From: Fidelibacterota bacterium
GTDB taxonomy: Bacteria > Fidelibacterota > Marinisomatia > SCGC-AAA003-L08 > JACNLC01
Assembly (NCBI GenBank): GCA_024277615.1
Contig: JAJRUW010000075.1
Span: 11,012 to 75,011, forward strand
Direction: 5' to 3'
DNA: 64,000 nt
Below are positions 31,465 through 64,000 of this stretch, piece after piece. Under the pieces are notes generated by a model that was not told the DNA's origin, made no database searches, and saw nothing but the letters and a program-made list of their open reading frames with translations. How positions within the stretch are numbered: position 1 is the first letter of the stretch; every line of letters begins with the position of its first letter. Position numbers and translations under genes: made by a program.

Positions 31465-34400
31465 TTATTTCAGCAGAGTGATCTTCTGAGTCAACACTTC
31501 ATTTGGTGTATCCATCTTTACCAGGTAAATACCTGAAGGCATGGCATTGCCATTTTTATTAGTGCCGCTCCAGACAGCCGAATAGGTTCCGGCAGATCTG
31601 AATTCATTCACCAATGTGGAAACATTCTGTCCTAACATATTATACACCGAAATATTAACCAGTCCGTCCTGCGGAAGTGTAAAACTGATGTTTGTTTCGG
31701 GGTTAAACGGATTAGGATAGTTTGACAGTAATGCATACTCATCTGCTATAGTCAGTTCGAGATAGTTTGCACCTGAAGCTGCGGTGACTTCATCAATGCT
31801 GAAATCGCCCGTGGCAGTGAAAAGTTCACTCTGCGGTGCCAGTACGACTAAGGTCGTGACGCCATCCTGAGTATTATAGTCGGCGAGATATGCATCATCT
31901 GCCATCTCAATGGCAAAGTCATCTCCATGACTGAGCTTCATATAAACTCCGCCAATATCACCATTCCCTTGGATAGAAACGCTGCCGTTATTGTTGATGA
32001 TGCTAGCAGAAGTAGCAGGTGTCGTTCTCCCTCCCTGATTCAGGACGAAGTCGATCATGATGACGATATCGAGAATATCGATATTACCATTATTATCCAT
32101 ATCCGAGTGACAGAAAGTATATTGACTGTCGTCAATAGTACCCAGAATATAGCCTACTACGGCAACAATATCGAGGACATCGATATTACCATCACCGTTA
32201 ACATCTCCGTTTCCTACACATACACCGAGACAGGAAAGAGCTGTATTGTAATCTTCGACTTCCAGAGGTGGATCTAAGGTCCACACATCGGTTGGGAAAG
32301 TATAGTCACCGAAGACGCCGTCAACCGGGCACATATATCTGGCGCGGAAACGTCCGAAGGCAAAACCACCACCTTCCTGTACACCGGTGCCGTCGGCGTC
32401 AACATATTCCCAGACATAGATCTGATGCCAGGGTGCCGGTCCGTTGATCGTGACGGTTGCGGTAAATGTACCATCGCCATTGTCAGTGGCCAGCCAGCGT
32501 GAGCCGTCGCCATTGCCATAGCCGAATCCCTGAACATAATTAAACCATTTGTCTTTCAGGATCACATAGACTTCATCTCCCGGAGTATAAAATTCATTAC
32601 CGCTCATGTCGAGATTGAAGGTCATCGTGAGTGATTGTCCTTCAGGCAATACTGCACCCGCCGGCAGGTCATAATAACCGGCCAGTGGCAGCTGCAGGAT
32701 ATCACCATCGGCGGATGGTCCGAGGTTAAAGGTTCTGTTTCCGCCGCCAAACTGCGGTGAGTCTTCCCAACCCATGTCGCCGTTGTAAAACGGACCATAA
32801 ATTGCCTCGAGATAGGCTATGGATTCTTCACTCTGATTCAGGAAGAATTTATATTCCATCTGAGTGGAAGAATAATTAGTGATGGTCAATGGCAGGGTGA
32901 AAATATTCGTACCGGGCTGACGGACCATTACGCTTTCTTCCGGGGGATCTGCATTCCAGCCGTTAAATCCACCGCGAACCTGGACTTCATCGTTCCGGGC
33001 AAGACTGAACAGCGGCATACCGGTTGCGCCGGCTTCATCAAGCCATTCACTCATATCCACTGAAAAGATAACCGTCTTGGTAACGATTTCATCTTCGATA
33101 GGTGGCTGATCATTCCAGTAAACAAAGGCCAATGTGCCGTCTTCGGTCACATCTGCCGTACGATTGCCGATTGAAGATTCCCAGCCATCAGGACCGGCGA
33201 GGAATTTATATTCAATGGCCACGCGTCCGGGAACAAAATGATATGTTCCACCCCAGAATTCACCCGTACCTTCATCCGTTAGTGGTTCAGCAGACCAGCC
33301 GTTCATTGTTCCGGCAATATACATGGTAGTACCATCATACTGAGGAATTCCGGCAGTACTGACGCGGAAGTAAATATCAATATCGTCTGTGACATCATAG
33401 GGTGGTGTGTTTCCGGCTTCCCAGTAATCGATGGGAAGATCGATTGGCAGGCCATCTCCGGAGACGGCAAAACTGCGGTTACTGGTTGATTCCCATTGGT
33501 CGCCTCCCGGCGTTACGTTTACATATTTATACTCATAATTACCAACTGCGAGAGGATCTGCTGTGGTAAATGACCAATAGTCGCCGCCATCATTTGTAAT
33601 TTCCCAATCGACACCCGACCAGCCATTCATGCTGCCGCGGATCACGATTGTATTGGTACTGTCAGTGAATCCCGGTGCGGTTGAAGTATTGAGATGGAAG
33701 GTCACCAGACTCGGGTTAGTGTCAGCCGGACAGGCATCAGCCAAATTAAAGCAGACTACCGGCAGGACAGTGTCCACGTCGGGTACGAGCAATGATCTGT
33801 TAGAGGACTCGTCCGCACCCCAGGCATTGCCGTTGATAAATTTATACTCAACAGTTTCGCCCGGATTCAGGCTCAGTGTTACAGCATAGACGGCATCAGT
33901 AACGAGAGTCAATTCGATTCCTGCAGGATCCCAGAAGGGGTACGGGTCGGGGAAACCACCGGCGACATGTACTCCATCGCCTGACACAGTTTCCAGAGCC
34001 ATATCCACCTGGAAGGTTATTTCAACAGTGGTGGTACCACCTGAAACAGCAATATCAGCTTCTGATCTGGGCTGTAATTTATAAGCACCGTAGCTGTAGT
34101 CTCCCACGCCGGTAACGTCATAGGAAGTCCCGAGTTCAGGCAAGAATGCAAACAGTTTATCATCCACTACGGCGGGACCGGAACCGTCATCAACGGACCA
34201 TTCACCGTATCCCAGGTCGGCGTTGTCACAATTTGAGTTTGTAAACGAGACCAACACACCTTCATAGGCTTCCAGGAAGTCACCTGTTGAAATTGCTGCG
34301 GGGTCCGGTAGAACATCACGGGCTGAGTTAAGCGTAAATCCGGTGATATTACTGATCTCTGTGAGACCATAATATTCCGAGACACTACCAACTATGGTGA

Positions 34401-35274
34401 TATTGTTGCCTTCGGCAACGGTATTTGCACTGTCGTAAACGTAAACACCATTCCAGGCCCCTGAGCCATCCTGTAACCAGTAGCCGGTTCCGGGATATAC
34501 TGCAGTAACCACGCCGGTTGTTTCGACCCATTCACCCTCCCAGGGTGATGCATCGACCTGCCCCTGGATGTCATAAATAGTGACAGCTGAGGCATAAGCA
34601 CAGGAACCGTCATCAACGGTTGCATCCGGGTTATAATTGGCCGCTAAGGGATCAGTACAGCCGGGGATATCACTCGGTGGTGTTATGTGCCAGCCGATGT
34701 AATCAAAGGTATCCTGATCGTAAACTATCCATTCAGAATCGTCTGCATTTGTTCCTGCGGATGCGTACCAGTCCGTATTTCCGCTCGTGATGGCATCTTT
34801 ACGAACCAGGGTGTGGTTTTTAGTTGCTTCTGTAACACCTGCAACATCCCACCCTGCGCCCGGGTCACCATCCCAGTTGCCGATCCAGTCGAGGACAACA
34901 AAATCAGCCTCGGTACCCTGAACCAGGGCAAATCCGTCATCTCCGTTGCTGAGATAATTGAAGGTCTGGTCACAAGCCGAAAGAATTTCCGGTCCCGCAC
35001 TACCGTGACAAACGACGAATACACCACCGGGAGCAACCATTGCACCATCGTCAAAGGTGTTCCAATATTCGTACTCGCCTGGTACAGTCGGAGCATTTGA
35101 AACATTAGGAAATGCATAACCTGAGAGATCAATGGGAGCGTCGGTCGGGTTATAGATTTCCAGTGCTTTGTTATTGCTGCTGCCTTCAATATATTCGGAA
35201 AAGAACAAACCTTGGGCAGATAGCATTGACATGATGCCTAAAAGCATAAATGTCAATTTTAGCATCTTTTTCAT
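31465..35274 (-). CDS. secreted 1269-aa protein: lamin-tail-like N-domain, ~5 CBM20-like beta-sandwich modules, dockerin-like pair, T9SS C-terminal sorting domain
   Basis: Signal peptide. FFSEYIEGSSNNKALEIYNPTDAPIDLSGY (LTD-type). Repeated V.F.VDM...G.W....EYKF....WE...NR modules. GDVNGDGNIDVLDIVAVV...DMDNNGNIDILDIVIMI. C-terminal NYPNPFNPETNISFTLP...QKITLLK. Confidence 0.85.
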   Translation of the reverse strand: MKKMLKLTFMLLGIMSMLSAQGLFFSEYIEGSSNNKALEIYNPTDAPIDLSGYAFPNVSNAPTVPGEYEYWNTFDDGAMVAPGGVFVVCHGSAGPEILSACDQTFNYLSNGDDGFALVQGTEADFVVLDWIGNWDGDPGAGWDVAGVTEATKNHTLVRKDAITSGNTDWYASAGTNADDSEWIVYDQDTFDYIGWHITPPSDIPGCTDPLAANYNPDATVDDGSCAYASAVTIYDIQGQVDASPWEGEWVETTGVVTAVYPGTGYWLQDGSGAWNGVYVYDSANTVAEGNNITIVGSVSEYYGLTEISNITGFTLNSARDVLPDPAAISTGDFLEAYEGVLVSFTNSNCDNADLGYGEWSVDDGSGPAVVDDKLFAFLPELGTSYDVTGVGDYSYGAYKLQPRSEADIAVSGGTTTVEITFQVDMALETVSGDGVHVAGGFPDPYPFWDPAGIELTLVTDAVYAVTLSLNPGETVEYKFINGNAWGADESSNRSLLVPDVDTVLPVVCFNLADACPADTNPSLVTFHLNTSTAPGFTDSTNTIVIRGSMNGWSGVDWEITNDGGDYWSFTTADPLAVGNYEYKYVNVTPGGDQWESTSNRSFAVSGDGLPIDLPIDYWEAGNTPPYDVTDDIDIYFRVSTAGIPQYDGTTMYIAGTMNGWSAEPLTDEGTGEFWGGTYHFVPGRVAIEYKFLAGPDGWESSIGNRTADVTEDGTLAFVYWNDQPPIEDEIVTKTVIFSVDMSEWLDEAGATGMPLFSLARNDEVQVRGGFNGWNADPPEESVMVRQPGTNIFTLPLTITNYSSTQMEYKFFLNQSEESIAYLEAIYGPFYNGDMGWEDSPQFGGGNRTFNLGPSADGDILQLPLAGYYDLPAGAVLPEGQSLTMTFNLDMSGNEFYTPGDEVYVILKDKWFNYVQGFGYGNGDGSRWLATDNGDGTFTATVTINGPAPWHQIYVWEYVDADGTGVQEGGGFAFGRFRARYMCPVDGVFGDYTFPTDVWTLDPPLEVEDYNTALSCLGVCVGNGDVNGDGNIDVLDIVAVVGYILGTIDDSQYTFCHSDMDNNGNIDILDIVIMIDFVLNQGGRTTPATSASIINNNGSVSIQGNGDIGGVYMKLSHGDDFAIEMADDAYLADYNTQDGVTTLVVLAPQSELFTATGDFSIDEVTAASGANYLELTIADEYALLSNYPNPFNPETNISFTLPQDGLVNISVYNMLGQNVSTLVNEFRSAGTYSAVWSGTNKNGNAMPSGIYLVKMDTPNEVLTQKITLLK

Positions 35275-35520
35275 AAAAGAATTCCTCCTTGTTATTTGAA
35301 TATATACTTTATCATATTTTTGGTATCGTAACTATGGGGATAGTTACCGAATACAGTAATTTACAACAGCTATAGTCACAAATTCATTAATTGATTTATT
35401 CTCCACGAGAACTATTTGCGACCTAACTGTTTTGTTAACTCGTTAATTCTATCAGCATCACCTCCTTTTTCTATTAAACTGCTTAAGTTGATTGTTTCCT
35501 GTTTCTCAATATTTACAGAT

Positions 35521-36624
35521 TCAATGGTCATTTAATTTTTCATCCGTTTCAGCATCGAAAAGATGAATCTTTGCCTGATCAATTTTTACGTTGATCTTCT
35601 CCCCCGTTTTTATTTGCAGATTGCCATCAAAATTCGCTGTGAGGTGAAGCCCGCTTACAATCAGATGCGCCAGCAGGCTCGACCCCAGAGGTTCGGTTAT
35701 CTCTACCTCTGCCCTGAAAGTCAGTCCTGACTCTTCAGCGGAACCCTGCTTCAAAACAGGAATGATATCTTCAGGCCGGATTCCCAGGACGACCCTGCGT
35801 TCACTGCTCGCCGGTAAAGTATGCTGCCCGAGATTAATTTGGAAATCTCTGACTCTGAAAATATGACCGCTTACATTTCCGGGAATGATGCTTCCTTCGA
35901 TAAAATTCATCTGGGGTGTACCGATGAACCCGGCAACAAATTTGTTTTTCGGCCTGTCATAGGTGGCTTTTGGTGTGTCCAGTTGTTCGATATTGCCGCG
36001 GTTCATCACGGCAATACGGTCGCCCATCGTCATGGCCTCCACCTGGTCATGGGTAACATAGATCATGGTTGTAGTCAACAACTTATGCAGGCGTTTAATC
36101 TCAATGCGCATCTCAGAGCGTAATTTAGCATCGAGATTCGAAAGAGGTTCATCGAATAAAAATACTTTTGGTTTTCGTACAAGCGCCCGCCCCAGGGCAA
36201 CCCGCTGGCGCTGTCCTCCCGAGAGTTCCCGGGGTTTTCGCTCCAACAGGTCTGCGATTTGCAGAATATCAGCCGCCTCTTCAACCCGCTTCCTGATTAA
36301 GTCCGGATTCTGTTTCCGGATCTTCAGACCGAAGGCCATATTTTCATAGACATTCATGTGAGGATACAGTGCGTAATTTTGGAAAACCATCGCAATATCC
36401 CGATCTTTCGGGTCCACATCAGTGACTTTTGTATCTCCGATATAAATCTCTCCGGAAGTCGGTGCTTCCAGACCTGCAACGAGCCTTAAAGTAGTGGACT
36501 TGCCACAACCGGAAGGACCGACGAGTACGAGGAATTCTCCGTCTTCAATCTGGAGGTTGATATCTGATAGTACGGCAGTGCTGCCAAATGATTTGTGTAT
36601 GGATTTCAGAGAAACTAAACTCAT
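35521..36624 (-). CDS. sugar ABC transporter ATP-binding protein (MalK/MsiK/UgpC type)
   Basis: Walker A GPSGCGKST, signature LSGGQRQR, Walker B FLFDEPLSNLD, and a C-terminal TOBE-like regulatory domain. Confidence 0.9.
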   Translation of the reverse strand: MSLVSLKSIHKSFGSTAVLSDINLQIEDGEFLVLVGPSGCGKSTTLRLVAGLEAPTSGEIYIGDTKVTDVDPKDRDIAMVFQNYALYPHMNVYENMAFGLKIRKQNPDLIRKRVEEAADILQIADLLERKPRELSGGQRQRVALGRALVRKPKVFLFDEPLSNLDAKLRSEMRIEIKRLHKLLTTTMIYVTHDQVEAMTMGDRIAVMNRGNIEQLDTPKATYDRPKNKFVAGFIGTPQMNFIEGSIIPGNVSGHIFRVRDFQINLGQHTLPASSERRVVLGIRPEDIIPVLKQGSAEESGLTFRAEVEITEPLGSSLLAHLIVSGLHLTANFDGNLQIKTGEKINVKIDQAKIHLFDAETDEKLNDH

Positions 36625-36627
36625 GTG

Positions 36628-39525
36628 CTATCCTATTATCTGTGCAACCAGCATCACAATATCGATAATATCGATGGCATTATCGCCGTTCAGATCGGCT
36701 GCGCTAAAAATATCCCCGCTGGGCATGGGTCCGTTGATGATGAAGTCCACTATGGTCACTATATCCAATATGTCAACGAGGCCGTCAAGATTGACATCAC
36801 CGGGTGTTATATTTGAAAAATCCGGAATTTCATTCAGAAAGATGAAGGCGCTGCCCGGGGGAATATCAAAATTGTATAGCCAGTTCCCTTCGACAAGATG
36901 CTCTCCCCCATTTAAATAGTCGTACCATGTTCCGGGATGCGGAAATTCGATATCAACGTTATTACTGCTGTCTCCGAAATTAGCTGCCACAATTACTTCT
37001 TCGGGACTGCTCATGCGCCAATACACGATAGTTTTATTGGTTGAACTCTGAGACTTTATTTCCAGCGCCGAGCTTCTCAAGACCTCATAATTCCTGCGCA
37101 GCGCTATCAGCCTTGCGTAAACATCAAACAGTTCGGCGCCGGACTGATTATTCAGCAGATACCATTGCAAGGGCTGGGGGATAATATTGCCGCCTGAATG
37201 GCTGGTTCCGTTTTGACCGAACTCCTGTCCATGGTACAACATGGGCGTACCTTGCGATGTAAATAATATTTTTGCTCCAAGTTCTGATTTTGCCAGGGCC
37301 GTCTCAAGGGTCATGCCCTGATAATGGGTCGCCTCATAAATGATCCTGCCTTCATCGTGACTCTCAAAATAATTCAGCGGACCAGTATAGTCCCAGTATC
37401 CTTGCGAAGATGCCGAAAGGTGGTTGCCCAGATCGTACATGTCTCCCCAGGAATGCCCGCTGTCATTTATCTCCAGTAAGTTGGAATTCAGCATGTGGAA
37501 ATAACTATAATCCCAACCGGCATCGAAGTCAGTATGATTTATCTGCCAGGAATTGTCCTCTTCTGCAATGATGATGAGCGTGGAATCATAGGCATTCAGC
37601 ATATTACCGTAGTGAGTGGCGCCCCAGTTCCCTTCCGAATCCCAGCCTATTCCTGCCGTGTGGTCGAAGCGGAAACCGTCAAAATGGTATTCCTGAACCC
37701 AGGTCATCAGAGCGTCATCACAATATTTCCGGGTTCTCGGGCTCCAATGCTGGAGTTTGTACCCCCAGGGCGATTCCTGGTCGTGAAAATAGGGATCATT
37801 AATATAATCATGGTCCTGATAGTCCCAGCTGCCAACCGGTTGATACAGTAAAAATAATGGCGCCGATCCCCACATGTGGTTGAAGACAACATCCAGCAGC
37901 ACTGCAATTTGATGCTGATGAGCCGTATCGACGAGCTGCCGCAATTCATCCGGTGTGCCGTAGGCGGACTCCGGAGCCATGTAAAAAGAGGGATTGTAGC
38001 CCCACGAATTGGCGCCTTCAAATTCATTTACGGGCATGAGTTCCAAAGCCGTAATGCCGAGATCGTCAAAGTAGCCTTCATCCAGTTTATCGATAATATC
38101 CTGGTAATTCCCTATTTCGCCGGGAACTCCCTTGAAATCACCAACATGAGTTTCGTAAACCACAACATCCCTTTGTTCCGGGCGGGTAAATTGAGCGTCA
38201 TTCCAATTGTATTCCCCGGCACCCACGGCAAAGTTTGTGAGAGCATCTTCGTAGTATCCGCTCTCCCAGCCGCCGGCGGGGTCGGTCCATTGCACATCTT
38301 TTGACCAGGGATCTGCAATTCTCCTCAGACCCTCTACATTGAATTGGTAGGTATAATTACCGTCCGGCAGCGTGGTTTGATACCACCAGAGCGTATCCCC
38401 TGAGAGTTTCATAAGCTCACCGGCAGGGTTATTTTGGTTCCAACTGCCCAGTACCGTGACATAATCTTTCGCCGGCGCATAAAGTGTGATCAGGATGTCG
38501 TTACCGGTAACCGTTAAGCCATCATCAGTACCTTCGGGAACAGGTTCGTGAATGATTGAGAAAGAGAGATAAATATGGCGGAACAGGAAAGTCACGCGAT
38601 CATTACTGCCCAAAGCCCGGGCGACAATGGTCACATCTCCGAACAATGTCTCAGGTGGTGTCCAGGTAACCGAGAATGGTGAAGAAAAAGCATCACCTGC
38701 AAAATCTCCCTGGACATAATAGGCCACTTCTACGGCATCACCGACGACGGATAATTCGACATCACCGGATATTTCGGCCCCCTCTGCGGGAGAAATATAA
38801 AAAACATAGGGGTCTCCGTCCTGGGGTGTGTAGTCAAAATAAATATCGTAATTGATGATCTGTCCGTTATCACCGGTATCCCAGTTACCGTCATCCCATT
38901 TAATTCTGAACTTGATTGATTGCACCACCTGTTCTCCAAGATTGAAGGGGCCAAGCTGCAGCTGATAAGTATCCCGGTTCAACTGCAGCGGTGACATCAG
39001 CCAGCCATCTTCTTCAAAAGAGCCTGCAGGCCGGTAACTTTCAATGGGCAGAAGATATCCCGCTCCTGCATCAACTTTCCAGGCAATATGTCCCCCCTGC
39101 TGAACATTGTTCAGAACGATGGTAGCGATATCATTCGCCCCCGGGTTGAAAGGTGTCCAGTAATAATTCAGACTGATATGCCAGTCAACGCCGATGCCGC
39201 CGTTGTTATCCCAGTTACCGTCGAGATCCGTGAAAACAAAATCCACGGTTTCGGCGATTTCAGGAACCGTATAATTGTAACTCCACCAGCCGTTCCCAAG
39301 TGCCGGCTCAAAAGTCATAGCATAATCGTCAGTCTCCTGCCAGCCGTTATATCCAAGGTGAATATAAACTGGAGAAGTATTGTCCGGCAAAGTACCCTCC
39401 AGCGTATTATAATAAATAGTAATATTCCCTCCCGGTACGGGGATCTCAGGTTCCCAGTAAACTGCCTGAGCAGGCAGGATAGCGCATATAAATAACGCGG
39501 AGACTAAAATATTTTTCAATTGCAT
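36628..39525 (-). CDS. secreted GH13 alpha-amylase-family enzyme (965 aa) with two CBM25-like starch-binding modules, CBM48-like module and C-terminal dockerin-like pair
   Basis: Signal peptide. ..VYIHLGYNGWQ..FVFTD.DGNWDNNGG.. in two copies. GH13 regions DVVFNHM, FDGFRFDH, AEE and FESHDE. C-terminal GDVNLDGLVDILDIVTIV...ADLNGDNAIDIIDIVMLV at 36631-36812. Confidence 0.85.
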   Translation of the reverse strand: MQLKNILVSALFICAILPAQAVYWEPEIPVPGGNITIYYNTLEGTLPDNTSPVYIHLGYNGWQETDDYAMTFEPALGNGWWSYNYTVPEIAETVDFVFTDLDGNWDNNGGIGVDWHISLNYYWTPFNPGANDIATIVLNNVQQGGHIAWKVDAGAGYLLPIESYRPAGSFEEDGWLMSPLQLNRDTYQLQLGPFNLGEQVVQSIKFRIKWDDGNWDTGDNGQIINYDIYFDYTPQDGDPYVFYISPAEGAEISGDVELSVVGDAVEVAYYVQGDFAGDAFSSPFSVTWTPPETLFGDVTIVARALGSNDRVTFLFRHIYLSFSIIHEPVPEGTDDGLTVTGNDILITLYAPAKDYVTVLGSWNQNNPAGELMKLSGDTLWWYQTTLPDGNYTYQFNVEGLRRIADPWSKDVQWTDPAGGWESGYYEDALTNFAVGAGEYNWNDAQFTRPEQRDVVVYETHVGDFKGVPGEIGNYQDIIDKLDEGYFDDLGITALELMPVNEFEGANSWGYNPSFYMAPESAYGTPDELRQLVDTAHQHQIAVLLDVVFNHMWGSAPLFLLYQPVGSWDYQDHDYINDPYFHDQESPWGYKLQHWSPRTRKYCDDALMTWVQEYHFDGFRFDHTAGIGWDSEGNWGATHYGNMLNAYDSTLIIIAEEDNSWQINHTDFDAGWDYSYFHMLNSNLLEINDSGHSWGDMYDLGNHLSASSQGYWDYTGPLNYFESHDEGRIIYEATHYQGMTLETALAKSELGAKILFTSQGTPMLYHGQEFGQNGTSHSGGNIIPQPLQWYLLNNQSGAELFDVYARLIALRRNYEVLRSSALEIKSQSSTNKTIVYWRMSSPEEVIVAANFGDSSNNVDIEFPHPGTWYDYLNGGEHLVEGNWLYNFDIPPGSAFIFLNEIPDFSNITPGDVNLDGLVDILDIVTIVDFIINGPMPSGDIFSAADLNGDNAIDIIDIVMLVAQIIG

Positions 39526-42273: not shown

Positions 42274-42274
42274 T

Positions 42275-43222
42275 TCAAATCTCCGGAGTAAATGTCAGAT
42301 TCATACGCAGATACCCGGGTGAAACGAGCTGGCTTTCATTAACATACTGATATACACTGAGTGGGAATTCAACATCCAGTAATAAATCAGGACGCAGGCG
42401 CAAACCGAATCCCGGTACGGCATACAGCCAGCGGCCTCCTCGTTCCCGTTTTATGCGCATGCCATATTCATCCGTATCCCTGAAAGTGTAAATATAATCC
42501 AGTTTTGCCTGCAGGAAGAGAATATCGGAGCGGTCGTAATTCAAACCCAGACTGTAATGATATTCATCCCCGTATTCATAGCCGTAAATGTTGGGGCCGG
42601 ATGAGATTTTTGAGATGAAATTACCGGTAACCAGCCATTTTGAATTGAGACTGCTGGTTGAAGCAAAAATGGAGAATACAGGATCAATGGTACCGGAGCC
42701 AATCTGCAAATTGTCGCTGATGCGTTTGCCGGACGGATCCGGCTTATCCAGACGGCCGGTTGCAAGTTTGGCGCCTATCCCGATATTTACCTGTAGAGCC
42801 TCATCAAAAAATGAATAAGAATATCGCCCGAGAAGGATGAGGTCACCTAACCCGGATGTACGGCGTATGAAGCTTGGATTGTCATAGAGAATTTTATTAT
42901 TTACAACCGAACGCCAGGGCAGAATTGCTTCGACTGATAATTTAGCTGTGACACCATAATTTAAGTAGAGAAATGCAGTAGAATTTGAAGTTTTTTCATA
43001 TTTTGGATTTGGTGCTGAATGATCGCCGAACTGAGCATCTTCGAGGTATTCATATTCGTAACCGATACCTGTCAGCAGGGCTCCCGCTTCGGTGCTGTTG
43101 CGCTTCATAATACTTCCACCCGGAAGAATTGGTCTGCGTCAGGATACACCGGCAGTCAATAAGTTCACGCCTAACAGCAGAAATCCTAAAAGTCCTAACA
43201 GTTGTCTGTTTGCTTTATTCAT
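42275..43222 (-). pseudogene. outer-membrane beta-barrel (MetA-pathway/transporter-like) with in-frame TGA after the signal peptide
   Basis: ATG 43222 encodes the signal peptide MNKANRQLLGLLGFLLLGVNLLTAGVS. TGA follows at 43139-43141, then RRPILPGGSIMKRN.. in the same frame as ORF 42275..43108. The body has alternating beta-strand patterns and a C-terminal ..LTFTPEI. Confidence 0.6.
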
Positions 43223-43259
43223 GAGTTACTCCTGTATTTTGTAGGTATGTACCATTTAT

Positions 43260-50215: not shown

Positions 50216-50303
50216 TTCAGCGGATCTTTCAACGACAATATTAAGAAAATAATGCAGCCGGTGTCAAATTCGGCTTCGGATATTTGAGTTGGTCTTCCGC
50301 TCA

Positions 50304-58300: not shown

Positions 58301-58704
58301 GAAGAAATTCGGGACTCTGAATTCGTCACATCAAACTGAATTACTTTTGCAGCTGCATTGACTGTTACCTCGGCGCCTTCCAGCGCCTGGACATTTAATT
58401 TAAAATTCTGGTGGGTGGTCTTGTCAATATTAATGACCACATCCGTAACGGTTGCAATCTGATAACCGATCATCATAGCCCTGATGCGATAGGAACCCGG
58501 AGGCAGATTCATTATTAAATATTCACCCTGAGCATCAGTAGCTGTGCCGATATCGCTGTCTTCGACCATAATATTGCAGCCCACCAGTGCCTCGCCGGTC
58601 CTGCCGTCGGTAACCTTTCCTACCAGCTTTCCGGTTGTCCCCCCGATGAGCAGATTAAAGATTATGACTCCTATAGCCAGCTTAATAATTCTTATAATTC
58701 CCAT
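55312..58704 (-). CDS. TonB-dependent receptor (CarboxypepD_reg + plug + 22-strand-type barrel) with a repeat insertion
   Basis: GKLVGKVTDGRTGEALVGCNIMV (CarboxypepD_reg), plug region ..VIKLQGGVTQD..IHIRGGRTSEVVYMVDG.., and a C-terminal ..REIQIGLELSW. Confidence 0.9.
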   Translation of the reverse strand: MGIIRIIKLAIGVIIFNLLIGGTTGKLVGKVTDGRTGEALVGCNIMVEDSDIGTATDAQGEYLIMNLPPGSYRIRAMMIGYQIATVTDVVINIDKTTHQNFKLNVQALEGAEVTVNAAAKVIQFDVTNSESRISSKQLDVMPITDVGDVIKLQGGVTQDAGGGIHIRGGRTSEVVYMVDGVSMTDVFNGGLSVNIENNNIQELQVISGTFNAEYGKAMSGIINMVTKDGGNRFDGGLSYYSGDHFSFDPIYRDLNSYDPVNDIDFEGSLSGPLWKNKITFYSSGRYFRSDGWLNGLNTFTMYGDTLFTDKNGNRFRDFAENYFDEQNQKWVINGQFLDRGNGRWDEGDPYEDQNANGIWDQGEPFTDIVGNRKWDSGEKFVWDESITKPNWDAGETFADRGNGIWDEGESFEDQNENGVYDRGEPFNDTGNGQWDPAEPLRTPYYKGMNWLEKWSTQNKLTLKFSPKTKLKFNFIYSFQRKQNYDHARQMAQDGRKTDYDIGDFKGLNLSHSFSSRTFIEVNLSQFKKVFKSYLYEDPYDPRYVTPDSLFWAHSDEEVPNYIRAEYGENYARYNPNYSFGRWGVDGNHFRRETNTIQFKIDLTSQMNKYNQVKLGLDFKQHKLQMEDATPIDLTNDQLYDPLVPELIDVSNLLVQGGLDPLSGNIPSWVAKLHFAGPFVLFGHYYVNEPREFSAYMQDKIEYGDMIVNLGVRYDYFDPNSFMPVNIHDPFFYNPMDPRLDSLLVEGRLNDLLNIDWGDTSYYVTSIDGLDTTWYMYGDFGDYPNKETLKTKRGWWRKTKTTSQISPRLGIAYPISETGVIHFSYGYFFQIPQFELLYKNPGYVINETASISGIFGNPELKPQRTQSYELGLQQELTNSLKLEVTGYYRDVRDWVSTGVPIDLGISGQTYYTYVNKDYSNVRGIIAAVDKRFSDHYSWHLDYTFQVAEGSNSDPGQEYASLTGGEGVPEPTRFILPLDWDQRHTLNGELYFSQGGFGADLLMQFGSGYPYTPTIVTYSNSGQNIVNDLPNNSRRKQPTLNFDLKLIQQIRVGNFAGGRVYLNIRNLFDKRNEINIWTDTGRANRTIEEASALSLEAAAPQPLRPNTIEDYFNHPEWYSPPREIQIGLELSW
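57390..57700 (-). repeat. coding repeats of an ~11-12-aa NGxWDxGEPFxD motif inside the receptor
   Basis: RGNGRWDEGDPYEDQNANGIWDQGEPFTDIVGNRKWDSGEKFVWDESITKPNWDAGETFADRGNGIWDEGESFEDQNENGVYDRGEPFNDTGNGQWDPAEP. Confidence 0.8.
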
Positions 58705-58756
58705 ATTTAGATTTCCAACTTATTGTGGCCGCCTGGTTTTGTCAGGCAGTCTGATT

Positions 58757-60034
58757 CTACATTATGAATGATGCTAATAATTCTTTATTGACCTCTATTG
58801 CCGTGTGGTCCTTCAAATTGTTAATGAAATCGATGTATAATTTTCTTTTCACCACTTCACTGGCCGTATCTCCCTGTGCCGCCTGGATGCGGGAGACCAG
58901 CAGACTCAGTATACGCCGTGATTTACGCTCCTGAAGATTTGCCACAAAATCAGGAGTCTTCAACCATTGCGATGCTTCAATGCGATTGAATATTTCCTCT
59001 CTGACTGAAAGCCCGACGAGCATTTCGTGAAGATCATCCGGAGTCTTAATTTGACGGCGCTGTGTATCCCGTGTGAGGCGCAGTTTTTCAGCGAGTTTGG
59101 CAAAATCCCAATCAAAATATTTTGTTTTCAAATGGACGTTACGCAAATTCCGATCTCTGAAAACCGACAGGTTGCGCTTTGCAAATATGGCCTCCAGGTT
59201 CTCAAACAAAAGCTGCAAGTCCTTATCACTGATCTGCAGGTCAAGTGTGCCGGCCACTTCGTCAGTGTAGGCTTTCACCAGCTTCTGCAACTTTCGGTTT
59301 TTTACTTTCGTCTCGAAATCGGTTTTATGAAGCTGATAATCCTGTTCGGTGATAAAGGGCTCATATTCACGGTCAATCACCTGCAGGATGCTGTATCCCC
59401 AGGCAGTTTTAACGGGATCTGATATTTGTCCGTCATCCAGAGAATAGGCCGCATCTTCAAAAGCCGGATCCATCTCATCATAAGTAAAATAGCCTAGATC
59501 ACCACCTGAATTCGCCAGGGCTGAATCCTGAAAGGTTTCCCTGGCAAGAGCTTCAAATGTTTCCCCCTTTTTCAGACGGTTCCTCAAGGTCCGGGCTTCT
59601 TCCATGGAACGGGCGTACAGGTGCCTGGCATGGATTTTTATTTTCGATCGACGAAAGGCTTCCCGAATATCCGCATCAGCAACTTTATAAGGATCAGCTA
59701 ATTCCTTTTGGTAGAACTGATTCAGAATGATTTGGCCGGTGGCAGCGGAGACAGATTCTTTGATTTCCGGTAATTCCGAAAATCCGGAAGTATCTGCATA
59801 AGTTGTGAGAATCATTTTCTCAATCTCGTTTTTCACAAAAACATTCCTGCTCATGAGATTATCCTCAACATGTGTAAAAGTCAAAAAATCGCTGTAATCG
59901 GTTTTAAAACTTTCAAGGTCAAGCGTCTGGTCTCCCACACGAGCGAGGTAATCCTGTTGTTGGTCAGGCAGATGTGAACAGCCTAACAAGAGGGCCAAAG
60001 CCATTCCTGCCATACCGGTTTTACTGCTGCGCAT
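58757..60034 (-). CDS. parvulin-type peptidyl-prolyl isomerase lipoprotein (SurA/PpiD-like)
   Basis: Lipoprotein signal MRSSKTGMAGMALALLLGC at ATG 60034 (the longer ORF to 60178 overlaps the upstream gene). PpiC domain IHARHLY...SGGDLGYFTYDEMDPAFEDAAYSL..GQISDPVKTAWGYSILQV. Confidence 0.8.
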   Translation of the reverse strand: MRSSKTGMAGMALALLLGCSHLPDQQQDYLARVGDQTLDLESFKTDYSDFLTFTHVEDNLMSRNVFVKNEIEKMILTTYADTSGFSELPEIKESVSAATGQIILNQFYQKELADPYKVADADIREAFRRSKIKIHARHLYARSMEEARTLRNRLKKGETFEALARETFQDSALANSGGDLGYFTYDEMDPAFEDAAYSLDDGQISDPVKTAWGYSILQVIDREYEPFITEQDYQLHKTDFETKVKNRKLQKLVKAYTDEVAGTLDLQISDKDLQLLFENLEAIFAKRNLSVFRDRNLRNVHLKTKYFDWDFAKLAEKLRLTRDTQRRQIKTPDDLHEMLVGLSVREEIFNRIEASQWLKTPDFVANLQERKSRRILSLLVSRIQAAQGDTASEVVKRKLYIDFINNLKDHTAIEVNKELLASFIM

Positions 60035-61886
60035 AGATAATAATTCCTTTAGCCGGTATGATAGATTCGTTCTCGTTAACGGCAGGATTTGCGAGAATAC
60101 GCTGCCAGCTCTGTTTTGCATTCCGGGTATTTTCCAGCAGCTGCGAAATTTCAAAGGGTTCAGCCGTTTTCGAGGCATTAAAAACGCAGATGAGGGCTTC
60201 GTCAGGCAATTCCCTTTTGAAGGCGAATATCAGGCGTCGATCATCTGCCAGTAAAACCTCATAGCTGCCACGACGCAGGGACTCATGTTCTCTGCGTAAG
60301 CGGATCATCTGCCGGTAAAAGGATAGCAGATCATTATCCACATTAACGGAGTCCCGGGGTCTTGGCAAACCGAAAGGATGGTGCGTCTCATCTTCATAAG
60401 TCAAATCCGCCCATACCATGGGTTTGCGTTCATCAGGATCGTCCGCGCCCCACATACCGACCTCGTCACCGTAATAAATATAGGGCGCTCCGGGGAATGT
60501 AAACTGAAAAGCCAGACCAATTTTCTGTTTGCGTCTCTCGTCTGCATTGGGTTTGCGTACCAGGTAATCTTTTTCATATTGCACATTATTGGCATGGTCG
60601 ATCCACCTGTCGGGATTCACGCAGGCTGAGGCAAAACGTTCATTGTCGTGACTGCCGATCAGATTTTGAATTTGAAGCATTGTGGGATAACCGTAATCTG
60701 AAATTATTCCATCCAGGAGACTGCCGAAAGCTGTGGCGTTGATCTGTTTTTGCTCAAAGAGAAAAAACTTGTAGATTGCATCACCAAAACGATAATTCAT
60801 CACCGCATCGAAGGCATCGCCCTGCAGCCACGGTGCTGCATTGAACATAATATTGTGCTCGTAATCTTTCCACCATACTTCTCCGGTGAGGTAACTGTCG
60901 GGGTTGATCGCAGTGGTCCAGCTACGGAACTTCCGCCAGAAATTCAGGGGTACCATATCGGCTACATCCAGGCGCCAGCCATCGATACCATCAGAAGGAT
61001 CGCCATCCCCGTTTGGATCCATCCAGCGTCTGACCACGGCATGAATATGCTCTTCGATTGGTGGTATCAGTCCCGCCTTATCTTCCTTCAGTTCGGCGAG
61101 GTCCTTAATACCGAACCAGCCTTCATAGGAAAACTCGTTTTCGGCCGTCTCCGGATCATCCCAGCTGGTAATCGTAAACCAGTCTTTGTAGAGACTTTCA
61201 GGACCATTTTTGCGTACATCCTCCAGGGCCCAGAACGGAATACCCACATGGTTAAAAACACCGTCGATGATGATGTGCATATCCCGCTTATGGACTTCCC
61301 TGACCAGTTTTAAAAAGAGTTTATCGGCCGATGTCCAGGTCCAGGTGTCGGGGTCGCCGGGGTTTTCAGTTTTCCAGAGGGCGGCATCACCGGCCGGATC
61401 AGGGCCAAAATTATTGTCGATGTGATGATAATATACAGCACCGTATTTGTGAGATGAAGGCGATTCAAAAACAGGGTTCAGGTAAATAGCGTTGATACCA
61501 AGTGACACCAGATAATCCAGTTCATCAATGATGCCCTGCAGATCCCCCCCATACCGCCTTAACTGGGCATTATAGTAAAAGCCTTGGCCATTTGCAGCCT
61601 CCCAGGGCTGCAGCTTATACCAGTCATCAGTCCAGGGAGTGATCTGCCAATAGGTTTGAACATCATAAGGCCAGGTTCCTGCCAGGGTTTCAATGGTGGG
61701 ATCGTTGGTGGTATCGCCATTCCTGAAGCGTTCAGGGAATATCTGATACCACACAGCGTCCCCGGCCCATACCGGCCCGGCAGTGGTTTTTTTATTTTTA
61801 GCATGTTGGAGGAAACAGCCCGCCAGAAGCAGCACCAGTAATAAAAAACCGGTTTTGTTAAAATGTTTAATTTGGCTGTTTAGCAT
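60021..61886 (-). CDS. GH13 lipoprotein, neopullulanase/cyclomaltodextrinase-like alpha-amylase family
   Basis: Lipobox at ATG 61886 (LLLAGC). Motifs WYQIFPERFRNGD, GINAIYLNPVFESPSSHKYG, DGVFNHVG, DGWRLDVA, GEVW and GSHDNERF. Confidence 0.9.
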   Translation of the reverse strand: MLNSQIKHFNKTGFLLLVLLLAGCFLQHAKNKKTTAGPVWAGDAVWYQIFPERFRNGDTTNDPTIETLAGTWPYDVQTYWQITPWTDDWYKLQPWEAANGQGFYYNAQLRRYGGDLQGIIDELDYLVSLGINAIYLNPVFESPSSHKYGAVYYHHIDNNFGPDPAGDAALWKTENPGDPDTWTWTSADKLFLKLVREVHKRDMHIIIDGVFNHVGIPFWALEDVRKNGPESLYKDWFTITSWDDPETAENEFSYEGWFGIKDLAELKEDKAGLIPPIEEHIHAVVRRWMDPNGDGDPSDGIDGWRLDVADMVPLNFWRKFRSWTTAINPDSYLTGEVWWKDYEHNIMFNAAPWLQGDAFDAVMNYRFGDAIYKFFLFEQKQINATAFGSLLDGIISDYGYPTMLQIQNLIGSHDNERFASACVNPDRWIDHANNVQYEKDYLVRKPNADERRKQKIGLAFQFTFPGAPYIYYGDEVGMWGADDPDERKPMVWADLTYEDETHHPFGLPRPRDSVNVDNDLLSFYRQMIRLRREHESLRRGSYEVLLADDRRLIFAFKRELPDEALICVFNASKTAEPFEISQLLENTRNAKQSWQRILANPAVNENESIIPAKGIIIYAQQ

Positions 61887-61908
61887 GGTGTTAAAATTAG
61901 TAACTCTG

Positions 61909-62796
61909 TTATGAGTTACCAACCCCTTTTTTTGCCAGATCCGCTGCTCCGAGTTTTGCGGACAACTCTTTTTTCCGGCTCTCGGAAATCGGAGTCGAAA
62001 AGTGGGCATAAGCCGGTGAATGTGCTTTGAGCTCTTCTTTAAGAGCCTCTACGAAAAAGCCGTATGCAGCTGAAATCCCGCCGCCAATAACTACCCTGTG
62101 AGGATCAAAGATATTGACAATATGCGAAATAAACAGACCAACTCTGCTCCCGTAGATTTCCCAGATCGCCAGAGCTGCCGCATTTCCGTCGGCCGCGAGG
62201 GTGCAGAGTTCTGCAGGAGACAGCCTGTGGCCAAATTTCAGGTAACTCTGCTCTTCAAGAAAACGGATGGAAATCCCTTCTTCCCAGCGCCCCCAATTTA
62301 CAGGTGAGATGCCATACTCGGCAGCCATACCATGTGCGCCTGTGTAGCAGGCACCATCCATAACAACCCCCAGACCGGTACCGGTACCTAAGGTAATACC
62401 CACCAGAATCCCCTGATTCGAACCCAACTGAAGGAACTCTCCCATAGCGAACAGATTGGCATCATTTTCTATCATAACCGGGACTTCAAGGTATTCTTTA
62501 AGGCGTTGTGCTACGGGGTAATTTTGAAACAATTTCAAATTGGGAGTCTCTAGTATTGTCCCGGCTTTTGCATCCAGCGGCCCGGGACAGGCAAGCCCTA
62601 CTCCTCCGAGCGTAATCAAATCTTTACCGGCGAGTGTATTGATCTGGTTCCCGATCCCTAGTATGAGCTCATCTCCGCTGTTAAAGTCATTGATGAGGCC
62701 CTTAGGTGACGAACGCAGTAAATTCAAATTCGCATCAAACAATGAACTGGAGAAGGTCGTCCCTCCAATATCGGTGCCGATAAAGACGGACTTCAC
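61909..62796 (-). CDS. ROK-family sugar kinase (glucokinase-like)
   Basis: IGTDIGGTTF ATP motif and ..GLACPGPLD...ENDANLFAMGE... ROK signature. It overlaps the upstream GH13 stop by 4 nt. Confidence 0.85.
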   Translation of the reverse strand: MKSVFIGTDIGGTTFSSSLFDANLNLLRSSPKGLINDFNSGDELILGIGNQINTLAGKDLITLGGVGLACPGPLDAKAGTILETPNLKLFQNYPVAQRLKEYLEVPVMIENDANLFAMGEFLQLGSNQGILVGITLGTGTGLGVVMDGACYTGAHGMAAEYGISPVNWGRWEEGISIRFLEEQSYLKFGHRLSPAELCTLAADGNAAALAIWEIYGSRVGLFISHIVNIFDPHRVVIGGGISAAYGFFVEALKEELKAHSPAYAHFSTPISESRKKELSAKLGAADLAKKGVGNS

Positions 62797-64000
62797 TGAA
62801 TACTGTAAATCCTGGTTTCGTAAGCTTGCAGTGTTACCGTCAGGCGATTACCAACCGGAATGATCATGCCTCGGTCCAGCAGGGATTTTCCCTGTGTGAA
62901 AGTGAAATAGTCATCCAGGGGCACCGTGAAAGATTTTAGCCTTGCAGAGTTATTAAAAAGCAGGATCAACCGTTCGTCAAAGTATTGTTTAAGCCATACG
63001 GCCCCCTGCTCATCGTGATATAAAACCCTGAGGTCACCCAGTGCCAGTGCAGGCTGCTGCCGGCGCAGATGAAGCAGTGTGCTCATTTTCAATTTAAGCG
63101 CCTGTTCTTCCACTGTGAGCGCAGCATCAAAGCGCATCATGCGGCGGTTATCAGGATCATTGGCACCGATCTGCCCAAACTCTTCACCATAGTAAATGAC
63201 GGGCACTCCGGGAAGTGAGAGATTCACAGCAGTAAACATGAAGAGTTTGTCATAACTCTCGGGATGCAATACTACCTCGGGGGGACTGGAAAAAGCTCTT
63301 TCGGTGCCGTTTTCATCGAAGGCCATCTGACCATCGGCAAAACCCATAAACCGCACCTGATCATGACTGCTGGTGAGCGTTCCCATTAAATTCACGGGCT
63401 GGAAATAATCAAGATTTCCTACTACTGTACGATCAAAATCTCTGAAGTCCTGATCGTCTCCGGCAAATTCCCGGCGACCTGCAAAATAAATCTCAAAATT
63501 GAATTGACTGTCAAGTTCTCCCGGATTTACATAGGCATTGATGAGGGCATTGCTGCCGTAGGATTCTCCAATCTGAAAATAAGTTCTGTCCGGTAACTCC
63601 GATAGTAGTTTGTGTCTTAAGGTTTTCCAAAATTCATGGGGAATGTGTTTTGTTGCATCCTGTCGAAAGCCGTCAAAGTCATATTCCCGCAGCCATAATA
63701 CGGCGTCATCAGTTACGGTCTGTACAGCCGCTGAATTGGAATAGTCGAAAGATGGCAGGAATTTATCGAACCAGGTTGTGAGCATGGTCTCTCCCGACCA
63801 GTTGCGCAGGTTTAAAGTTCCGTCCGGCATTTCCAGTTTCCCGAACCAATCACGATGTTCTTTGTAATAGGGATGCTCTTCGTGAACATGATTTGCCACA
63901 AAATCCAGCAGCATAGAGATCTGCCGCTCATGGGCACTTTTGGTAAGTTGTTTTAGTTCGGAGGCTGTCCCGAAACGGGCATCGACGGAGCGGGGTTTGA
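62793..64000 (-). CDS. GH13 alpha-amylase-family enzyme (N-terminus beyond the window end)
   Basis: The frame stays open to position 64000 (..SVDARFGTASELKQLTKSAHERQISMLLDFVANHV). Catalytic regions DGFRQDATKH, QIGESYG and TSSHDQ. Confidence 0.85.
   Translation of the reverse strand, partial: KPRSVDARFGTASELKQLTKSAHERQISMLLDFVANHVHEEHPYYKEHRDWFGKLEMPDGTLNLRNWSGETMLTTWFDKFLPSFDYSNSAAVQTVTDDAVLWLREYDFDGFRQDATKHIPHEFWKTLRHKLLSELPDRTYFQIGESYGSNALINAYVNPGELDSQFNFEIYFAGRREFAGDDQDFRDFDRTVVGNLDYFQPVNLMGTLTSSHDQVRFMGFADGQMAFDENGTERAFSSPPEVVLHPESYDKLFMFTAVNLSLPGVPVIYYGEEFGQIGANDPDNRRMMRFDAALTVEEQALKLKMSTLLHLRRQQPALALGDLRVLYHDEQGAVWLKQYFDERLILLFNNSARLKSFTVPLDDYFTFTQGKSLLDRGMIIPVGNRLTVTLQAYETRIYSIQ

Follow-up and report, generated by a model that had tools for sequence, protein, structure and literature searches.

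A stretch of 64,000 nucleotides of a Fidelibacterota bacterium (GenBank assembly GCA_024277615.1, contig JAJRUW010000075.1, positions 11,012 to 75,011 of the forward strand), hereafter the window, very probably contains a conserved locus of Marinimicrobia/Fidelibacterota for the utilisation of alpha-1,4/1,6-glucans, i.e., starch, glycogen or maltodextrin, as judged from sequence comparison. The enzymes of this locus are ordinary; its new element is the outer-membrane module. The latter is made of three adjacent genes, g13, g12 and g11, for a TonB-dependent transporter (TBDT), a large secreted protein of an uncharacterised family and a barrel of the PorV/PorQ family, respectively. That the three products form one uptake complex, with a partner anchored by means of type IX secretion (the T9SS) and the PorV-like barrel, is suggested by gene order and structural models and is in our opinion an even call. 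Taken whole, an alpha-glucan locus with the trio as its outer-membrane uptake step is the best explanation, and we consider it likely.

From position 31465 to the end of the window, a mechanical list of open reading frames (ORFs) gives 17 ORFs in succession on the minus strand, over 32.5 kb. They are numbered from g01 (31465-35274), the 3' end of the cluster, to g17 (62793->64000), its 5' end. The window truncates g17, so that the cluster has at least 17 genes and extends over at least 32.5 kb. The coordinates are the same as those of a previous annotation made by a model from the letters and the ORF list (the sequence-only reading), which had counted 17 successive minus-strand genes between 31465 and 64000. 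It had also assigned the products to families, i.e., GH13 (three times), GH57, GT35, ROK, MalK, MalG and a fusion of a solute-binding protein (SBP) with MalF, TonB-dependent, PorV-like, parvulin, T9SS and dockerin proteins, and Pfam and NCBIfam support all these assignments.

The genes for an ATP-binding cassette (ABC) importer and for the putative catabolic enzymes are the following:

35521 to 36624, minus strand: g02, MalK-type ABC ATPase (Pfam ABC_tran, OB_MalK and TOBE_2, with the C-terminal regulatory domain).
43260 to 44180, minus strand: g07, MalG-type ABC permease (Pfam BPD_transp_1, 70 bits).
44177 to 46411, minus strand: g08, maltodextrin-binding protein fused to MalF, likely start at 46384 (Pfam SBP_bac_8/1 and BPD_transp_1; NCBIfam MalE and MalF).
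46450 to 48165, minus strand: g09, short-type GT35 alpha-glucan phosphorylase, 571 aa, cytoplasmic (TIGR02094, 532.8 bits for a cut-off of 191.7; Pfam Phosphorylase, 113 bits).
48152 to 50215, minus strand: g10, GH57 protein of the 4-alpha-glucanotransferase type, cytoplasmic (Pfam Glyco_hydro_57, AmyA-A_glucT_m and AmyA-gluTrfs_C).
61909 to 62796, minus strand: g16, ROK-family sugar kinase, 295 aa, cytoplasmic, no helix-turn-helix or other DNA-binding domain (Pfam ROK, 158.8 bits).
62793 to 64000, minus strand: g17, GH13 enzyme whose N-terminus lies beyond the window (Pfam Alpha-amylase, 72.5 bits).

g08 is a single ORF of 744 codons; a look-up of its exact sequence, whose start codon is uncertain, gave no match. 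A crude scan detects six hydrophobic segments after the binding domain, where the topology expects seven. The binding domain matches PDB entry 6FFL with E=2.6e-141. This entry, deposited as a maltose/maltodextrin transport permease homologue, is presumably the MalE domain of the MalE-MalF fusion of Bdellovibrio bacteriovorus; the structure is said to come from Licht et al. 2019. A scan with g08, using one genome per species, yielded 80 loci (loci are designated by L and a number), and the 17 products were compared with these loci by tblastn. The SBP-MalF fusion is uninterrupted in 69 of the 80 loci, from Marinimicrobia, Bdellovibrio, Planctomycetota, Ignavibacteria and Cloacimonadota, and is thus a known and widespread architecture. 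SBP and MalF are encoded separately, though still in the frame of the fused gene, in L047, L050, L051, L054-L056, L059, L065, L075 and L079 (Bacteroidota/Ignavibacteria-type), which suggests fusion or fission at one site. The homolog of g07 always comes after that of g08 in relatives.

Among the enzymes, the phosphorylase g09 also matches the model of Thermococcales maltodextrin phosphorylase (441 bits, below the cut-off). The glucanotransferase-type g10 aligns over its full length with the 4-alpha-glucanotransferase of Thermococcus litoralis (1K1W, 480 bits), and the positions of E123 and D214, which we take to be the catalytic residues of 1K1W, are conserved. The matches of g16 to the NCBIfam ROK glucokinase and allose kinase models are below their equivalog cut-offs. 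Regions I-IV of GH13 are present in g17 (DFVANH, GFRQDATKH, IGE and SSHD), and its homolog in L081 is a protein of 788 aa with a weak CBM48-type match. The catalytic Asp/Glu/Asp of GH13 are found in g17 and in the two other GH13 products, g03 and g15. A phosphorylase, a 4-alpha-glucanotransferase and a glucokinase make up the classical maltodextrin catabolic set, i.e., the MalQ/MalP/Glk scheme.

The trio lies upstream of these importer genes and directly before g10:

55312 to 58704, minus strand: g13, TonB-dependent transporter, 1130 aa (Pfam CarboxypepD_reg at the N-terminus, Plug and TonB_dep_Rec_b-barrel).
51347 to 55318, minus strand: g12, secreted beta-rich protein of ~1300 aa, uncharacterised family.
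50304 to 51347, minus strand: g11, outer-membrane beta-barrel of the PorV/PorQ family (NCBIfam NF033709, 185.8 bits for a cut-off of 90).

At E<=1e-3, g13 has no match to the SusC/RagA model TIGR04056 nor to any PDB sequence, and NCBIfam gives just weak matches of the siderophore-receptor type. No family model of Pfam or NCBIfam matches g12, and neither its sequence nor the profile of its family has a match in PDB. The family is nevertheless a large one: a word-indexed search retrieved 786 homologs and an exhaustive one 1315 representative clusters (E<=1e-3; 331 of them with E<=1e-30), all named «hypothetical» in their sources. The homologs carry the labels Marinimicrobia or Fidelibacterota. 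g12 is characterized by a cleavable signal peptide, Asp-rich repeats of the calcium-binding type and a segment resembling fibronectin type III (FN3). The AlphaFold (AF2) model of a member 51% identical to g12 is beta-rich and multidomain with few helices (predicted local distance difference test, pLDDT, 72; predicted template modelling score, pTM, 0.51). It leads to no fold-based function, and a SusD-like or cohesin-like fold is absent from the top 50 Foldseek matches. PorZ and PorU figure among the better of these matches, with a very low TM-score. As for g11, it scores 80 bits with the PorQ model and 69 bits with the PorV model, both below the equivalog cut-offs, and its sole PDB match is PorV of F. 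johnsoniae (6H3I, E=9.9e-9). By sequence, g11 is a paralog and not PorV or PorQ proper.

The order TBDT of the CarboxypepD_reg type, g12-like protein, PorV-family barrel is collinear in every context inspected with enough flank. The neighbours differ: xylulokinase and xylose isomerase in L084; a major facilitator superfamily (MFS) transporter and a ROK protein in L086; a GDSL esterase in L087; in L085, an alpha-glucan locus, TrmB, a Y_Y_Y/HATPase sensor and an SBP that is not fused. Since the trio is found beside differing sugar genes, it is a generic module rather than one specific for alpha-glucans. Its three genes diverge together in L081-L088 (identities of 29-58% for g13, 26-67% for g12 and 34-58% for g11). 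In L050 and L056, labelled as Chlorobiaceae and Bacteroidetes metagenome-assembled genomes (MAGs), genes like g12 and g11 also adjoin an alpha-glucan cluster. The 1221-aa protein and the PorV-like barrel had been taken for incidental surface proteins by the sequence-only reading; they turn out to accompany the transporter as its conserved partners, and nothing else in the locus is as novel. A search of the open-access literature found no description of the trio, nor of T9SS or of T9SS-linked uptake in Marinimicrobia.

The end of g12 deserves a separate description. The gene consists of 1221 codons, an in-frame TAG (51653-51655), a domain of 101 codons resembling a T9SS C-terminal domain (CTD, 51350-51652) and a TAA that overlaps the ATG of g11. 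Homologs are ~90 residues longer than the 1221-aa ORF of the window. The CTD is nearly invariant across the family and, in 87 of 107 long representatives, forms the very end of the protein. Its NCBIfam matches are all sub-threshold and concern the C-termini of PorZ (E=4.5e-4) and PorU (E=7.8e-4); the score with the type-A CTD model TIGR04183 is 15.7 bits for a cut-off of 23, and the match with the canonical CTD of g01 is marginal. The AF2 model of the CTD of the window itself has seven strands (pLDDT 66). In Foldseek, PorZ (5M11) ranks first (TM 0.60, 2.7 A), and the CTDs of NucA and RemA bound to T9SS rank third and sixth, which suggests that the domain belongs to the fold class of T9SS CTDs. 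Proteins with a canonical type-A CTD are also encoded in the window, i.e., g01 and others within 12696-23255.

At the position of the TAG, the closest relative has GAG and others have CAG or AAC. Over the 101 codons past the TAG, the ratio of nonsynonymous to synonymous substitution rates (dN/dS) with respect to L001 is 0.035 at dS 0.55. Purifying selection has thus acted on the CTD over practically the whole divergence from L001, and the stop is either very recent, a minority variant or an error of sequencing or assembly. A sequence error is plausible since other genes of the window are disrupted as well; from these comparisons, the TAG is probably an error or recent.

The uncleaved CTDs of PorZ and PorU remain bound to the barrels PorQ and PorV, respectively (PMC10202324). 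In the same review, cognate PorV-like barrels are proposed to protect CTDs and to anchor the cargo (PMC10202324). This precedent of a retained CTD, together with the proposal of cognate barrels, is the basis for a mechanism in which g12 would be held by g11.

The remaining genes of the cluster, apart from g06, encode putative proteins of the surface or the periplasm, or putative accessory proteins:

31465 to 35274, minus strand: g01, LTD-CBM20-dockerin protein whose T9SS CTD is of the canonical type A (Pfam LTD, CBM_20, Dockerin_1 and Por_Secre_tail; TIGR04183, 42 bits for a cut-off of 23).
36628 to 39525, minus strand: g03, secreted CBM53-GH13-dockerin enzyme (Pfam CBM53, Alpha-amylase, Alpha-amylase_C and Dockerin_1).
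39516 to 41192, minus strand: g04, secreted FG-GAP/ASPIC (CRTAC1-like) protein (FG-GAP_3, six times, 160.7 bits; UnbV_ASPIC, 52.4 bits).
41182 to 42273, minus strand: g05, beta-propeller lipoprotein with lipobox MIS/C (weak Pfam Lactonase/YNCE; NCBIfam beta-propeller repeat).
58757 to 60034, minus strand: g14, parvulin-type peptidyl-prolyl isomerase lipoprotein, likely start at 60034, lipobox LLLG/C (Pfam Rotamase, 69.7 bits).
60021 to 61886, minus strand: g15, GH13 lipoprotein, likely start at 61886, lipobox LLAG/C (Pfam Alpha-amylase, 176.6 bits).

The GH13 catalytic regions are present in g03 (DVVFNH, GFRFD, AEE and ESHD) and in g15. In NCBIfam, the latter scores 240 bits with maltodextrin glucosidase and 236 bits with cyclomaltodextrinase, in either case below the cut-off, and is also neopullulanase-like. 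g14 adjoins the transporter in the alpha-glucan loci L081, L082/83, L019 and L085, either upstream or, in L085, divergently transcribed. Dockerin modules resembling type I are located at protein positions ~1023-1077 of g01, ~908-962 of g03 and ~483-536 of g04; the C-terminus of g04 is weakly dockerin-like (Dockerin_1, 18.3 bits, below the cut-off). No Pfam cohesin family is found among the 17 products. An «amylosome», with g12 as cohesin scaffold for the dockerins of g01, g03 and g04, was considered and not adopted, for want of a cohesin Pfam match and of structural support.

The locus is conserved in relatives. The closest g08 loci belong to Marinimicrobia/Neomarinimicrobiota or to MAGs labelled «FCB group» (Fibrobacteres-Chlorobi-Bacteroidetes), with identities from 92%, 85% and 74% downwards. 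In nine Marinimicrobia loci (L001-L006, L019, L023 and L049) the order g13-g12-g11-(g10)-g09-g08-g07-(g06-g05-g04)-g03-g02-g01 is kept, and this order persists down to ~50% protein identity. Within these nine, GH57 (g10) is missing in three (L006, L019 and L023) and the block g06-g05-g04 is absent from six. In L081, whose g12 is 67% identical, the order from g17 to g05 is intact up to the end of the fetched locus, i.e., GH13, ROK, GH13, parvulin, TBDT, g12, PorV, GH57, GT35, SBP/MalF, MalG, barrel and propeller. In L082/L083 (g12 51% identical) the core GH13-parvulin-TBDT-g12-PorV-CBM20/T9SS is retained, with a symporter of the sodium:solute symporter family (SSF) in place of the ABC importer, a TrmB regulator and two extra GH13s. 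The trio is moved to downstream of MalK in L022. Since the synteny is conserved in many independent genomes, the arrangement is not due to chance. Conservation of gene order in relatives and support of the families by profile searches were two of the checks proposed by the sequence-only reading, and both gave a positive outcome. From these comparisons, the locus is conserved but modular.

The junctions between the genes are tight. The mechanical ORF list contains three apparent gaps of more than 100 bp: 35275-35520 (246 bp), 43109-43259 (151 bp) and 51348-51652 (305 bp). In the last one, 51350-51652 (101 codons) is the in-frame extension of the 1221-aa ORF beyond the TAG. In the second one, 43142-43222 encodes a signal peptide in frame with the barrel ORF of g06 via a TGA (43139-43141). 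Once these two segments are counted as coding, 35275-35520 (246 bp) is the sole gap of more than 100 bp, in agreement with what had been stated from the letters. Overlaps occur at the junctions g13/g12 (7 nt), g12/g11 (TAATG), g08/g07 (4 nt), g04/g03 (10 nt), g05/g04 (11 nt) and g10/g09 (14 nt); the remaining junctions are gaps of at most 88 nt, the 246-bp gap before g01 aside. Long ORF overlaps are also listed for g14/g15 and g15/g16; they arise only because the first possible start is called, and vanish with the likely starts 60034 (g14) and 61886 (g15), which give lipoprotein signal peptides. The start/stop overlaps of g13/g12 (7 nt) and g12/g11 (TAATG) suggest coupled translation within the trio. 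The cluster is closed, directly after its last gene g01, by the following feature:

31416 to 31447, minus strand: hairpin resembling an intrinsic terminator (14-bp stem followed by a T run).

A scan for promoters and terminators found no terminator-like site of comparable strength inside the cluster. Matches resembling sigma-70 promoters occur inside the cluster at chance frequency only, and are uninformative on operon structure in this phylum.

The following path would account for these observations. Outside the cell, g01 and g03, which contain carbohydrate-binding modules (CBMs) and, for g03, a GH13 domain, would bind and cut the polymer. The oligosaccharides would cross the outer membrane via g13, working with the partners g12 and g11 encoded directly after it. 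We infer that g12 is exported by T9SS and is kept at the surface by its CTD bound to g11, in the same manner as PorZ with PorQ, and that it contacts g13 and glycans. It could be a glycan-capturing or lid-like partner of g13, i.e., it would fulfil the function of SusD, to which it is unrelated. Assembly is probably aided by the lipoprotein parvulin g14, and the lipoprotein GH13 g15 would trim dextrins in the periplasm. The importer, of the carbohydrate uptake transporter 1 (CUT1) type and made of g08 (binding protein-MalF), g07 (MalG) and g02 (MalK), would move maltodextrins into the cytoplasm, where g10, g09, g16 and g17 would turn them into glucose-1-phosphate and glucose-6-phosphate, according to the logic of MalQ/MalP/Glk with other protein families. 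The block g06-g05-g04 may be an optional accessory.

Several observations weigh against parts of this path. (i) The full-length model of the g12 family retrieves generic FN3 and immunoglobulin (Ig) chains alone, with TM <0.1-0.2, and g12 has no recognisable CBM. (ii) The call of the CTD depends on hidden Markov model (HMM) scores below threshold, on a model with pLDDT 66 and on Foldseek E-values of 1e-3 to 2e-2. (iii) The TAG severs g12 from its CTD and, if it is real, the proposed export and anchor signal is lost. (iv) The core genes of T9SS are not located in the 64-kb window. (v) g03 and g04 carry a signal peptide yet lack a T9SS CTD, and a cohesin to bind their dockerins was not detected; the location of these two dockerin proteins at the surface, as claimed by the sequence-only reading, is therefore not borne out. 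(vi) No regulator (SusR, hybrid two-component system (HTCS), or extracytoplasmic function (ECF) sigma/anti-sigma factor) is found among the 17 products, the 5' end of the cluster being outside the window. (vii) The 246-bp gap ahead of g01 and the modularity of the locus in relatives speak against one transcript and against the single regulon supposed by the sequence-only reading.

The last point leads to another explanation, that independently regulated operons (outer-membrane proteins, ABC importer, glycogen-type enzymes and surface proteins) stand side by side, with a common substrate and no common promoter or regulon. The modules are indeed shuffled in relatives, as seen from the loci without GH57 (L006, L019 and L023), the six loci without g06-g05-g04, the moved trio of L022 and the SSF symporter of L082; the gap ahead of g01 and the sigma-70-like matches inside the cluster, though the latter are at chance frequency, point in the same direction. 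On the contrary, overlapping or tight junctions over 30 kb, a strong terminator at the end alone and the same order retained over deep divergence argue for a single unit, and we consider separate operons rather unlikely. A related doubt concerns the cytoplasmic enzymes: GH57, GT35, ROK and g17 could serve the turnover of the cell's own glycogen and be linked to uptake by chance or convenience, as the metabolism of endogenous glycogen, too, employs GT35 phosphorylases and glucanotransferases, and GH57 is dispensable in some syntenic loci. This has a slim probability, given that a conserved order places the enzyme genes between outer-membrane module and ABC importer, that the cluster has no gene for glycogen synthase or branching enzyme, and that phosphorylase, 4-alpha-glucanotransferase and glucokinase are the classical maltodextrin set.

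With regard to the trio, g12 and g11 might be a T9SS adhesin or S-layer-like protein with its own anchor barrel, located merely beside the TBDT and with no part in glycan uptake. g12 has neither a detectable CBM nor a SusD-like fold; its model resembles FN3/Ig chains, the top Foldseek match of the full-length model is an S-layer protein, at very low TM-score; moreover, Asp-rich repeats of the calcium-binding type are typical of adhesins. Yet the order TBDT, g12-like protein, PorV-family barrel is found everywhere with enough flank, with g12 at 26-67% identity and beside varied sugar genes, and overlapping junctions and co-divergence with the transporter in a fixed order are unexpected for an unrelated adhesin, which makes this explanation improbable. 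Alternatively, the locus could be decaying in this genome, the TAG of g12 being a true nonsense codon, with its export/anchor domain lost and a non-functional outer-membrane module. This is in line with the TAG at a site where relatives have GAG, CAG or AAC and with the other disrupted genes of the window (TBDT at ~7.4-9.3 kb; MsrB/MsrA at an A6 run). Nevertheless, the 101 codons past the TAG are intact and in frame with the low dN/dS given above, and the homopolymer frameshift elsewhere in the window points to sequence errors; decay is distinctly improbable. An alpha-glucan locus with the trio as uptake step thus stays the preferred explanation.

A second result concerns g06 and the region just upstream of its barrel domain:

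42275 to 43222, minus strand: g06, small outer-membrane barrel of the Phenol_MetA_deg family (Pfam PF13557, 30.1 bits).
43099 to 43141, minus strand: stem-loop resembling a selenocysteine insertion sequence (SECIS), with an outer stem, an 8-bp hairpin and the apical loop GGGU; it begins at the TGA of g06.

The stretch before the barrel reads in frame MNKANRQLLGLLGFLLLGVNLLTAGVS-TGA-RRPILPGGS-IMKRN, and the predicted mature N-terminus is GVS-[TGA]-RRPILPGG. A TGA is found at the same site, in G(V/I)S-TGA-RRP(I/L)LPGG, in nine distinct sequences whose g06 identities range from 37 to 93% (the set comprises the window, L001, L002, L005/L090/L092, L091/L093, L081, L089 and L094/L095). Across this set the signal peptides diverge freely, and the codons that flank the TGA change synonymously: those of Gly-Val/Ile-Ser (TCN/AGC for Ser) and of Arg-Arg-Pro (CGN/AGR for both Arg). 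The signal peptide is found solely upstream of the TGA, and the L005-type sequences have no start codon downstream of it. The conserved TGA, its synonymous flanks, the absence of a downstream start and the need of a barrel for the upstream signal peptide lead to the conclusion that the TGA is translated. Gene callers cut the homologs just after the TGA or read it as Trp (code 4); in P0281, W stands at this site in the called product, i.e., it is seen at the protein level. TGA is the ordinary stop of 6 of the 17 genes of the cluster.

In the conserved hairpin (GGGY loop, ~17 nt past the TGA), 89.7% of the cells are paired; slid controls do not exceed 65%. Its covariation was evaluated on six sequences only: both sides have changed in three pairs, and the score is equalled by 17 of 500 shuffles. 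The minimum free energy of the window copy is no better than that of shuffles, and an Rfam scan of the region at E<=10 gave no match. Homologs with Cys at the site of the TGA were not found in the homolog searches, in a metagenome motif scan or in a full-length search, and a search with a 148-aa fragment gave one protein. No gene for the selenocysteine machinery (SelA, SelB, SelD, tRNA-Sec) is present within the 64-kb window. In L094, a TARA Oceans contig with a g06 homolog, the region 19100-19900 contains gene fragments with TGA at the peroxiredoxin site FTPG-U-T and at the Rdx/SelW-like site C-S-A-U; since L094 comes from a marine relative, this lineage decodes selenocysteine. On these comparisons, selenocysteine is the most likely reading of the TGA of g06, and a reasonably probable one, so that g06 is a candidate for a new selenoprotein family. 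No outer-membrane barrel that is a selenoprotein was found described in the open-access literature searched. In L094 too, the neighbours of g06 are g05, a g04-like gene and a GH13.

Other observations were made in the window. In a gene for an MsrB-MsrA fusion (26990-27915, minus strand), a frameshift at an A6/T6 run within 27629-27643 leaves two ORFs that overlap, a probable error of sequencing or assembly or else a pseudogene. A second TBDT gene (~7420-9300, plus strand) contains several in-frame stops and frameshifts, with just Plug and barrel fragments left as ORFs, a further sign of pseudogenes or of low sequence quality in the window. Between 12696 and 24870 on the minus strand, two giant proteins with a T9SS CTD are encoded, of 1163 aa (Big_9 and dockerin) and 2352 aa (Laminin_G_3), and after them a 519-aa protein in which the domain of endosialidase chaperones, Peptidase_S74, is present. 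The proteins of 12696-24870 appear unrelated to the alpha-glucan cluster.

The locus can be compared with the Sus system of Bacteroides thetaiotaomicron and other polysaccharide utilisation loci (PULs) with SusC/SusD. They have in common: (i) surface binding and cutting, followed by import through a TBDT of the CarboxypepD_reg type and by a periplasmic GH13 lipoprotein; (ii) one cluster on the same strand, with the gene right after the transporter as presumed surface partner; (iii) co-localised carbohydrate-active enzymes and binding modules (here three GH13, GH57, GT35, CBM20 and CBM53). They differ in that g13 has no SusC/RagA match and no SusD family is present, i.e., both tests that define a SusC/SusD PUL were negative here. 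Moreover, the partner is a beta-rich protein of ~1300 aa with an end resembling a T9SS CTD, together with a PorV/PorQ barrel, and not an alpha-helical lipoprotein. The inner-membrane step is an ABC importer and not an MFS transporter, cytoplasmic enzymes are included, and no SusR or HTCS is seen in the window. The absence of SusD had been remarked upon by the sequence-only reading, and no SusD-family Pfam match is indeed found in any of the 17 products. Its description as unusual cannot be retained: the host belongs to Marinimicrobia and not to Bacteroidia, and g13 is not of the SusC family either. As susCD is scarce in Ignavibacteriales and absent in Kapabacteria (PMC10576277), i.e., in neighbouring lineages, missing SusC/SusD is expected for this phylum.

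With the pairs PorZ-PorQ and PorU-PorV, and with type-B CTD cargo and its PorP/SprF barrel (PMC10202324), g12 and g11 would share a C-terminal beta-sandwich and a cognate barrel, and in the type-B case they share the clustering of the gene pair. On the contrary, neither PorV, PorQ nor PorP/SprF is orthologous to g11, g12 is unrelated to PorZ and PorU outside the CTD, and the g12/g11 pair, known here from sequence and models, is tied to a nutrient transporter and sugar genes and not to secretion machinery. With the Bdellovibrio MalE-MalF importer (6FFL), the locus shares the fused architecture of g08 and the presence of MalG and MalK genes nearby; the difference is that the importer is here part of a more extensive locus, which also provides for outer-membrane uptake and encodes catabolic enzymes. 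With the maltodextrin catabolism of Thermococcales, it shares a GH57 glucanotransferase, a MalP-type phosphorylase and, in the related loci L082 and L085, regulators of the TrmB family, whereas the host is here bacterial, the phosphorylase is shorter (571 aa) and the window has no TrmB gene. In Proteobacteria, loci for carbohydrate utilisation containing a TBDT (CUT loci, e.g., MalA of Caulobacter crescentus and those of Xanthomonas) combine a TBDT without SusD, an inner-membrane transporter and glycoside hydrolases for one substrate, and they normally include regulators. To our knowledge, they have no obligatory gene pair after the transporter and T9SS is not involved. By its predicted function, the locus described here is of the PUL/CUT type.

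The dark and oxygen-poor ocean is rich in Marinimicrobia (SAR406), and we know of almost no experimental work on how they take up polymers. A broader proposal can be put forward tentatively, at a strength somewhat below even. The trio could represent a hitherto unrecognised and widespread class of uptake complexes in Marinimicrobia and other non-Bacteroidia lineages of the FCB group, in which a CTD-anchored T9SS protein takes the role of SusD and which would mark PULs as susCD does, and g06 could be the first outer-membrane selenoprotein. If the TGA of g06 is decoded as selenocysteine, g06 would stand for a new family of selenoproteins, in a compartment where none was expected. Should the trio prove to be an uptake complex, it would provide a marker for glycan-utilisation loci where PUL prediction based on susCD fails, a new link between type IX secretion and nutrient import, and a defined target for structural work.

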